From contig CAZFGR010000007.1 in the NCBI GenBank assembly GCA_964518475.1, positions 1 to 64,000 of the forward strand: a stretch of DNA of 64,000 nucleotides. Direction: 5' to 3'. Positions 24,216 to 24,277 of the stretch are shown piece after piece. The notes beneath the pieces are model-generated. The model was not told where the DNA came from. It made no database searches and saw nothing but the letters and a program-made list of their open reading frames with translations. Within the stretch, counting starts at the first letter, position 1, and every line of letters starts with the position of its first letter. The position numbers and the translations under genes were made by a program. This DNA comes from an uncultured Nitrososphaerota archaeon. GTDB lineage: Archaea; Asgardarchaeota; Njordarchaeia; Njordarchaeales; Njordarchaeaceae.

Positions 24216-24277
24216 GGGGCTCTCTGAGTACGCCCATCATCACGAGTCTCAGTTCACCTCCTCTAGGTCATCGCCCC
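24216..24277 (-). ncRNA. Box C/D sRNA with terminal stem
   Basis: Minus strand reads GGG-GCGATGA-CCTAGAGGAGGTGAA-CTGA-gactc-GTGATGA-TGGGCGTACT-CAGA-ga-GCCCC. Confidence 0.78.

Follow-up and report, generated by a model that had tools for sequence, protein, structure and literature searches.

A conserved box C/D sRNA of an Asgard archaeon, predicted to guide ribose methylation in the mRNA-binding tail of 16S rRNA

The minus strand of the DNA analysed here (the window, a stretch of 64,000 nucleotides) carries, from position 24277 to 24216, a conserved box C/D sRNA of an Asgard archaeon, which is a predicted guide for ribose methylation in the mRNA-binding tail of 16S rRNA. This tail holds the anti-Shine-Dalgarno (anti-SD) sequence, the part of the ribosome which selects mRNAs. 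In the reading that we consider probable, the RNA acts in trans, and its 12-nt D′ guide anneals to the nine 3′-terminal nucleotides of 16S rRNA, so that fibrillarin is directed to the counterpart of Escherichia coli C1535, in the anti-SD.

Results

The locus and the register of its boxes

The genome which carries the window (G000) is a metagenome-assembled genome of 2.33 Mb in 121 contigs, with 38% G+C, and the window proteins have their nearest named homologues in Njordarchaeales and other Asgard archaea. From 24282 to 24205 of the minus strand, the locus consists of UGAAU, GGGGC, G, AUGACCU, AGAGGAGGUGAA, CUGA, GACUC, GUGAUGA, UGGGCGUACUCA, GAGA, GCCCC and a U-rich tract (Table 1). The letters listed in a first-pass annotation of this DNA (GAUGA, CCUAGAGGAGGUGAA, CUGA and GUGAUGA within GGGGC/GCCCC) are all found on the minus strand between 24277 and 24216, and its proposal of a box C/D sRNA at 24216-24277 agrees with the architecture, the conservation and the stem covariation. 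The 15-nt D′ guide that it described has to be shortened, as its CCU corresponds to positions 5 to 7 of the C box, which covary with the D box. A parse with the boxes GCGAUGA (C) and CAGA (D), giving guides of 15 and 10 nt, was rejected by the homologue alignment, its register being 3 nt off. In every homologue, the GC before the box pairs with the GC after the D box, so that these two bases belong to the stem; the C box consequently starts three bases later than first read, CCU is box and not guide, and both guides are 12 nt long.

After this correction, the C-D′ and C′-D spacings are 12 and 12 nt. Twelve nucleotides is the canonical archaeal guide spacing, and the layout as a whole (stem, C, 12 nt, D′, 5 nt, C′, 12 nt, D, stem) is that of the perfect-box C/D sRNAs, of which G000 has at least 22. 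The internal D′ and C′ boxes expected of an archaeal box C/D sRNA are both present, and the GA dinucleotides of the C and D boxes, which can form the tandem sheared G.A pairs of a k-turn, are invariant in the five aligned homologues. The stem adjoins the C and D boxes via one bulged nucleotide plus R-U, as it does in the canonical sRNAs of G000. The C and D boxes of G000 (AUGACCU and GAGA) depart from the RUGAUGA and CUGA consensus; they are variant boxes with compensatory departures and not a case of box absence. The minimum free energy (MFE) fold retains the terminal stem (z = -2.3), while its inner pairs are not conserved. The stem may extend to 24282 through UGAA/UUCA, and the U-rich tract that follows the RNA is a possible archaeal oligo-T terminator. 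No family was matched in a Rfam scan of the window at the gathering threshold. Among the sequencing runs listed as containing the locus, none is an RNA run.

Table 1. Features of the sRNA locus and related elements of the window.
Feature	Position	Strand	Remarks
Terminal stem, 5′ half, GGGGC	24273..24277	-	pairs with GCCCC 24216-24220; kept with altered sequence in homologues
G directly 5′ of C box	24272	-	first bulge nucleotide of the predicted k-turn
C box variant AUGACCU	24265..24271	-	from homologue alignment; AUGA invariant
D′ guide AGAGGAGGUGAA, 12 nt	24253..24264	-	nt 2-10 antisense to UCACCUCCU in the 16S 3′ tail
D′ box CUGA	24249..24252	-	CAGA, CGGA, UAGA or CCGA in homologues; GA always retained
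Spacer GACUC, 5 nt		-	between D′ and C′ boxes
C′ box GUGAUGA	24237..24243	-	GUG is the start of a 24-codon ORF
D guide UGGGCGUACUCA, 12 nt	24225..24236	-	target uncertain
D box variant GAGA	24221..24224	-	from homologue alignment; GA invariant; position 1 covaries with C-box position 6
Terminal stem, 3′ half, GCCCC	24216..24220	-	pairs with GGGGC; retained in MFE fold
U-rich tract UUUCAUUUUUU	24205..24215	-	directly 3′ of the sRNA; read from the sequence only
XPB/Rad25-like SF2 helicase	22815..24191	-	Pfam ResIII, Helicase_C, ERCC3_RAD25_C; downstream neighbour, outside the RNA
Perfect-box C/D sRNAs	10920-10968, 24898-24946, 62653-62705	-	three elements, all minus

The three perfect-box sRNAs that the first-pass annotation had noticed in the window, with guides of 12-13 nt, do exist. 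Several of their guides match rRNA of the related genomes G005 or G006 with at most one mismatch per 10 nt, and one of the three (24898-24946) lies about 620 nt upstream of the element described here. A CopG-type ribbon-helix-helix protein of 60 aa is encoded directly upstream of the element (24330-24512, minus), and the gene order ribbon-helix-helix protein, sRNA, helicase, 127-aa ORF is kept in a second species (L061). Further XPB/Rad25-like paralogues of the helicase are found in G000, in the window at 14744-15961 (plus strand) and at C28:11532-12842 and C9:19858-20646, with 37-45% identity. The 44-47% helicase matches in the remaining congeners could be orthologous to the C28 paralogue and not to the gene adjacent to the sRNA.

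Conservation and covariation

An element with the same guide core is present in six genomes (G000, G001, G002, G003, G004 and G009) and on one JGI metagenome contig (L065). The core, GAGGAGGUGA, is identical in all of them, and the spacers differ; conservation of the guide in related genomes, which the first-pass annotation had named as a way to check its proposal, is thereby borne out. G002 is the second species, represented by four contigs (L061-L064) with identical upstream sequence, and in these as in L065 the element was found 5′ of the orthologous helicase. The copies of G001, G004 and G009 were found by searching 400 genomes of the phylum for the pattern, and that of G003 with a covariance model; G009 belongs to a different family of the same order.

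The boxes are less constant than the guide core. The C box reads AUGACCU in G000 and L061, a perfect AUGAUGA in L065 and G004, and AUGAAGA in G001 and G003; the D box reads GAGA in G000, CUGA in L065 and G004, CGGA in G001 and GGGA in L061. In G003, G009, L065 and G004 the boxes are fully or nearly canonical. In L061/G002, both guides are intact beside degenerate D′ (CCGA) and C′ (AUGGGGA) boxes, which is unexpected if D′-guided methylation is the sole selected function.

C-box position 6 and D-box position 1 are paired in all five sequences of the MAFFT alignment, three times as G-C and twice as C-G. Overall, 78% of the cells are paired against 64% in shuffles, the observed value being reached in 1 of 500 shuffles, and the covariation score is 0.436 against 0.214 (3 of 500). 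With five sequences from two or three lineages the set is small, and the covariation supports the corrected parse while falling short of proof. The recurrence of the guide core, together with the stem covariation, indicates that the element is more than a chance assembly of motifs.

When all species genomes were scanned for the C1535 register with a strict CUGA, convincing sRNAs were found only in the host's order (G003 and G009). The other matches, 16 bacterial sites and one archaeal site lacking the remaining boxes, are consistent with chance or with Shine-Dalgarno (SD) contexts.

The predicted target in the 16S tail

The 16S and 23S genes of G000 itself were searched for in the assembly and not found, the rRNA operon being unassembled. 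We therefore used proxies: for 16S, the congener G005 and G010 of the same order; for 23S, G005, G006 and G010. With at most half a mismatch per 10 nt, 16 of 44 guides of perfect-box sRNAs matched these rRNAs, against 4 of 44 shuffled guides, which shows that the proxies are usable.

UCACCUCCU is the 3′ end of every archaeal 16S that we fetched, that of the congener included, and the target of the D′ guide was taken from the congener 16S and this universal tail. The guide pairs with it by nine Watson-Crick pairs out of nine, over the last nine 16S bases before the spacer (E. coli 1532-1540). The fifth guide base from the D′ box is a G, which faces the C equivalent to E. coli C1535 and forms a C-G pair at N+5; the guide thus offers the complementarity to rRNA of at least 9 bp, with a Watson-Crick pair at N+5, that is expected of an archaeal box C/D sRNA. 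Here the first-pass annotation was right on two counts: AGGAGGUGA is fully complementary to UCACCUCCU at the 16S 3′ end, and the N+5 rule puts the predicted site on the C1535 equivalent, inside the anti-SD. The genes for fibrillarin, Nop5 and L7Ae, the machinery which such a guide requires, are present in G000.

The D guide probably addresses another 16S site, judging from its complementarity. Nine consecutive base pairs are formed with GAGUACGCC in the 16S of G005, about 392 nt from the 3′ terminus, and we regard this pairing as a tentative assignment. Among the proxy rRNAs, we saw no convincing target for the D guides of the L065, G004, G001 class.

Elsewhere in the genome, the 15-nt target has no match except the antisense strand of the locus itself. 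The 12-nt target has two further exact matches (C1:114260 and C2:27807), which we assume to be SD sites read on the opposite strand. The sense strand of a 474-codon ORF, of which G000 has two identical copies (C8:51385 and C33:14226), is complementary to the D guide at 11 of 12 positions; this match was dropped as a candidate target, about one such match being expected by chance.

Paralogous guides on adjacent nucleotides of the tail

G000 has a paralogous box C/D sRNA on contig C1 (345268-345340, minus strand; L206/L220), with the same stem-G-AUGA layout, variant boxes (AUGAAGA and CGGA), a T run at its end and a weak match to Rfam sR14 (E 0.006). Its guides are AGGAGGUGAUCU, which pairs over 12 bp with GGAUCACCUCCU and has its N+5 at C1533, and GUCCUUUAAGUU, which pairs over 11 bp with AACUUAAAGGA of 16S. 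This C1533 type was detected by pattern in 7 of the 15 genomes of the order, to which the covariance model adds G005, and it occurs together with the C1535 type in at least four genomes (G000, G001, G002 and G004). The sRNA of G003 joins a C1535-type guide to a guide which pairs over 10 bp with the AAAGGAAUU region of 16S, also addressed by the second guide of the C1533 type, and this combination links the C1533 and C1535 types as paralogues.

Two other registers were encountered. In G009, the tail guide occupies the C′-D half of an sRNA that is canonical throughout; it pairs 10/10 with its N+5 at A1534, and the other guide of this sRNA pairs over 10 bp with 16S. In G008 (L212, G008:C237:2953-3019), the D′ guide AGAGGUGAUCCA pairs over 11 bp with UGGAUCACCUC, which puts U1532 at N+5; the other guide of this sRNA is rich in A and has no rRNA match. 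These complementarities point to a small set of paralogous sRNAs in the host's order, the guide registers of which would slide over U1532, C1533, A1534 and C1535.

Two oddities of 16S genes were noted besides. In one Asgard genome (L012, G024:C1:446964-452389) the 16S match is about 2.4 kb long, and two copies of the 3′-terminal motif GGAUCACCUCCU lie about 1 kb from each other, which suggests large insertions or introns in this gene, or a duplicated 3′ segment. In L008 (G037), a degenerate copy of helix 45 and the tail, ending in GGAUCACCUCCUAGAG, precedes the 16S gene on the opposite strand (minus, near index 1301).

Discussion

In the proposed mechanism, an RNA of about 62-70 nt would be produced from the locus and would act in trans. 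L7Ae, Nop5 and fibrillarin would assemble with it, on its variant boxes, into a methylation RNP; the D′ guide would then pair with UCACCUCCU and thereby bring fibrillarin to the ribose of C1535.

Other explanations concern either the stage at which the 16S tail is bound or the nature of the element itself. The first-pass annotation had the extra 5′ bases of its guide pair past the mature 16S 3′ end into the spacer, making the RNA a guide specific to pre-rRNA, which would modify or mask the anti-SD only before the final 3′ trimming. We consider this quite unlikely, although guide nucleotides 11-12 (AG or GG) do extend two positions past CCUCCU, G11 is invariant in all homologues, the paralogue guides end exactly at the last U of the tail, and a timing role in 30S maturation has been proposed for Nanoarchaeum equitans sR13 by Seistrup et al. 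(PMC5389701). The 15-nt guide is a misparse: the supposed extra bases are the C box. Moreover, the genus offers a single 16S-ITS junction for comparison, that of G005, where AAAG and not CUAGG comes after CCUCCU, so that the junction anticipated in the first-pass annotation (UCACCUCCUCUAGG) is not the one found there. Guide bases 11-12 (AG) face AA in this junction and do not pair, and neither AG nor GG can pair with an ITS which begins AAAG. In G010, of the same order, the ITS reads GGUGG. This guide type and an assembled 16S-ITS do not occur together in any genome, so the pre-rRNA model has the support of no matched pair. A metagenome scan with the helix 45 and tail of G005, aimed at ITS variants, returned bacterial 16S, with no relative among the matches listed. 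When contigs of three DNA runs were compared with the G005 16S 3′ end, they reflected a mixed community with mostly bacterial loose ends, in which the host ITS is indistinguishable.

A different view takes up the alternative of the first-pass annotation, an SD for a 24-codon GTG uORF: GGAGGUGA would be the SD of an ORF of 21-24 codons which starts in the C′ box and is translationally coupled to the start of the XPB-like helicase (ATG at 24191, 3′ of the sRNA). The 24-codon GTG ORF is real (24243..24169, minus, beginning in the GUGAUGA box), the 9-mer of the D′ guide that pairs with the tail is by definition also a perfect SD, and no SD is obvious before the helicase of G000 itself. Furthermore, a short ORF from the C′ position runs up to the helicase start, or close to it, in G000, L061, L065 and G001, and the ORFs of G000 and L061 have the residues GVLRE in common. 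We nevertheless hold this explanation to be very improbable. Across 1734 long ORFs of G000, GGUGA most often has its 3′ end 7 nt upstream of the ATG (range 5-8 nt), which shows that the anti-SD is in use in this genome; in the five homologues the distance from the same base to the start of the small ORF is variable, from 11 to 16 nt. An AUG or GUG start is inherent to every RUGAUGA box, and in G009 no ATG, GTG or TTG follows the motif. The synteny with the helicase, kept in L061, L065 and G001, is absent in G004, where the copy lies between convergent genes, and in G009, where it lies antisense between two genes; the neighbours are unrelated, and these two homologues are not 5′ of a helicase. 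The helicase of G001 has its own SD (GAGGAG), and GVLRE coincides with the conserved D guide, the peptides diverging otherwise. A coupled ORF leaves the conserved AUGA, the GA dinucleotides, the 12-nt spacing and the stem covariation unexplained. It is also conceivable, though in our opinion unlikely, that the element is a drifting duplicate of the C1533 guide RNA, which may bind L7Ae or the 16S tail yet no longer methylates, or that it forms a k-turn in the helicase leader for L7Ae-dependent control of the helicase. The boxes are indeed non-consensus in G000 and degenerate in L061, the C1535 duplex is shorter than that of the C1533 paralogue (9 bp vs 11-12 bp), and G000 possesses in this paralogue a guide that fits the same tail better. 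For Sulfolobus, binding of L7Ae to mRNA leaders has been reported (PMC5539422). Decay, however, would hit the guide core first, and this core is unchanged across two families; the k-turn stem is maintained by compensatory changes, and the boxes of L065, G004, G003 and G009 have stayed close to the consensus. The loss of the helicase linkage in G004 and G009 speaks against control of the helicase.

The trans-acting methylation guide, which we prefer to these alternatives, has known counterparts. N. equitans 16S carries Am1534 inside the anti-SD, as established by MALDI-MS and RiboMeth-seq (Seistrup et al. 2017, PMC5389701). This methylation was assigned to one guide of Neq sR13, a member of the sRNA set of N. 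equitans (Dennis et al. 2015, PMC4644070), the other guide directing Am1408, and sR13 was proposed to time late 30S maturation in an organism without Dim1 (PMC5389701). The same study reports Cm1533 in the anti-SD of Ignicoccus hospitalis, with no sRNA assigned (PMC5389701). sRNA-guided 2′-O-methylation inside the anti-SD is therefore already published; the reviews that we searched for anti-SD targets make no mention of any.

Like sR13, the element described here is a box C/D sRNA in which one of the guides is antisense to 16S 1531-1540 and has its N+5 in the anti-SD, and the likeness lies in the action at the tail, which is described for sR13 and predicted here. The register is one nucleotide apart (C1535 instead of A1534), the A1534 register being that of the relative G009. 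The partner guide of sR13 targets A1408 in helix 44, whereas no such match is found here, the best D-guide match lying about 392 nt before the 3′ end. Finally, N. equitans is devoid of RsmA/Dim1, whereas G000 has it. I. hospitalis, in contrast to N. equitans, keeps Dim1 and has a methylated C in its 16S tail, and the C1 paralogue of G000 has exactly the C1533 register. The sRNA of the window points two nucleotides further 3′, and its site is predicted from sequence, whereas the methylation has been seen in Ignicoccus.

With the canonical dual-guide C/D sRNAs of archaea, the element shares the order and spacing of the boxes, the 12-nt guides, the short terminal stem and the N+5 rule. It differs from them in stem II of the k-turn, which consists of C.A, C-G and U-A instead of U.U, G-C and A-U, and in a terminal stem that is longer and G+C-rich. 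It thus offers a natural example of a C/D k-turn stem II rewritten by compensatory change.

The presence of several registers invites a further speculation, to which we give little credence: the sliding-register sRNAs, with N+5 at 1532, 1533, 1534 and 1535, could form a staged clamp on the 16S tail, the C1535 register, two nucleotides past CCUCCU, acting on 3′-extended pre-16S. If this were true, the anti-SD would be kept from mRNA until the final trimming, and an Asgard archaeon would have an RNA-based late checkpoint alongside Dim1.

In conclusion, the concept of guided methylation in the anti-SD is left unchanged by this study, and the value of our findings is incremental. They add a predicted C1535 site and a family of paralogous guides which would tile four adjacent nucleotides of the tail, and they would extend to an Asgard lineage the design seen in Nanoarchaeum and Ignicoccus. 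Ribose methylation of the anti-SD could tune the pairing with SD sequences, especially at high temperature.
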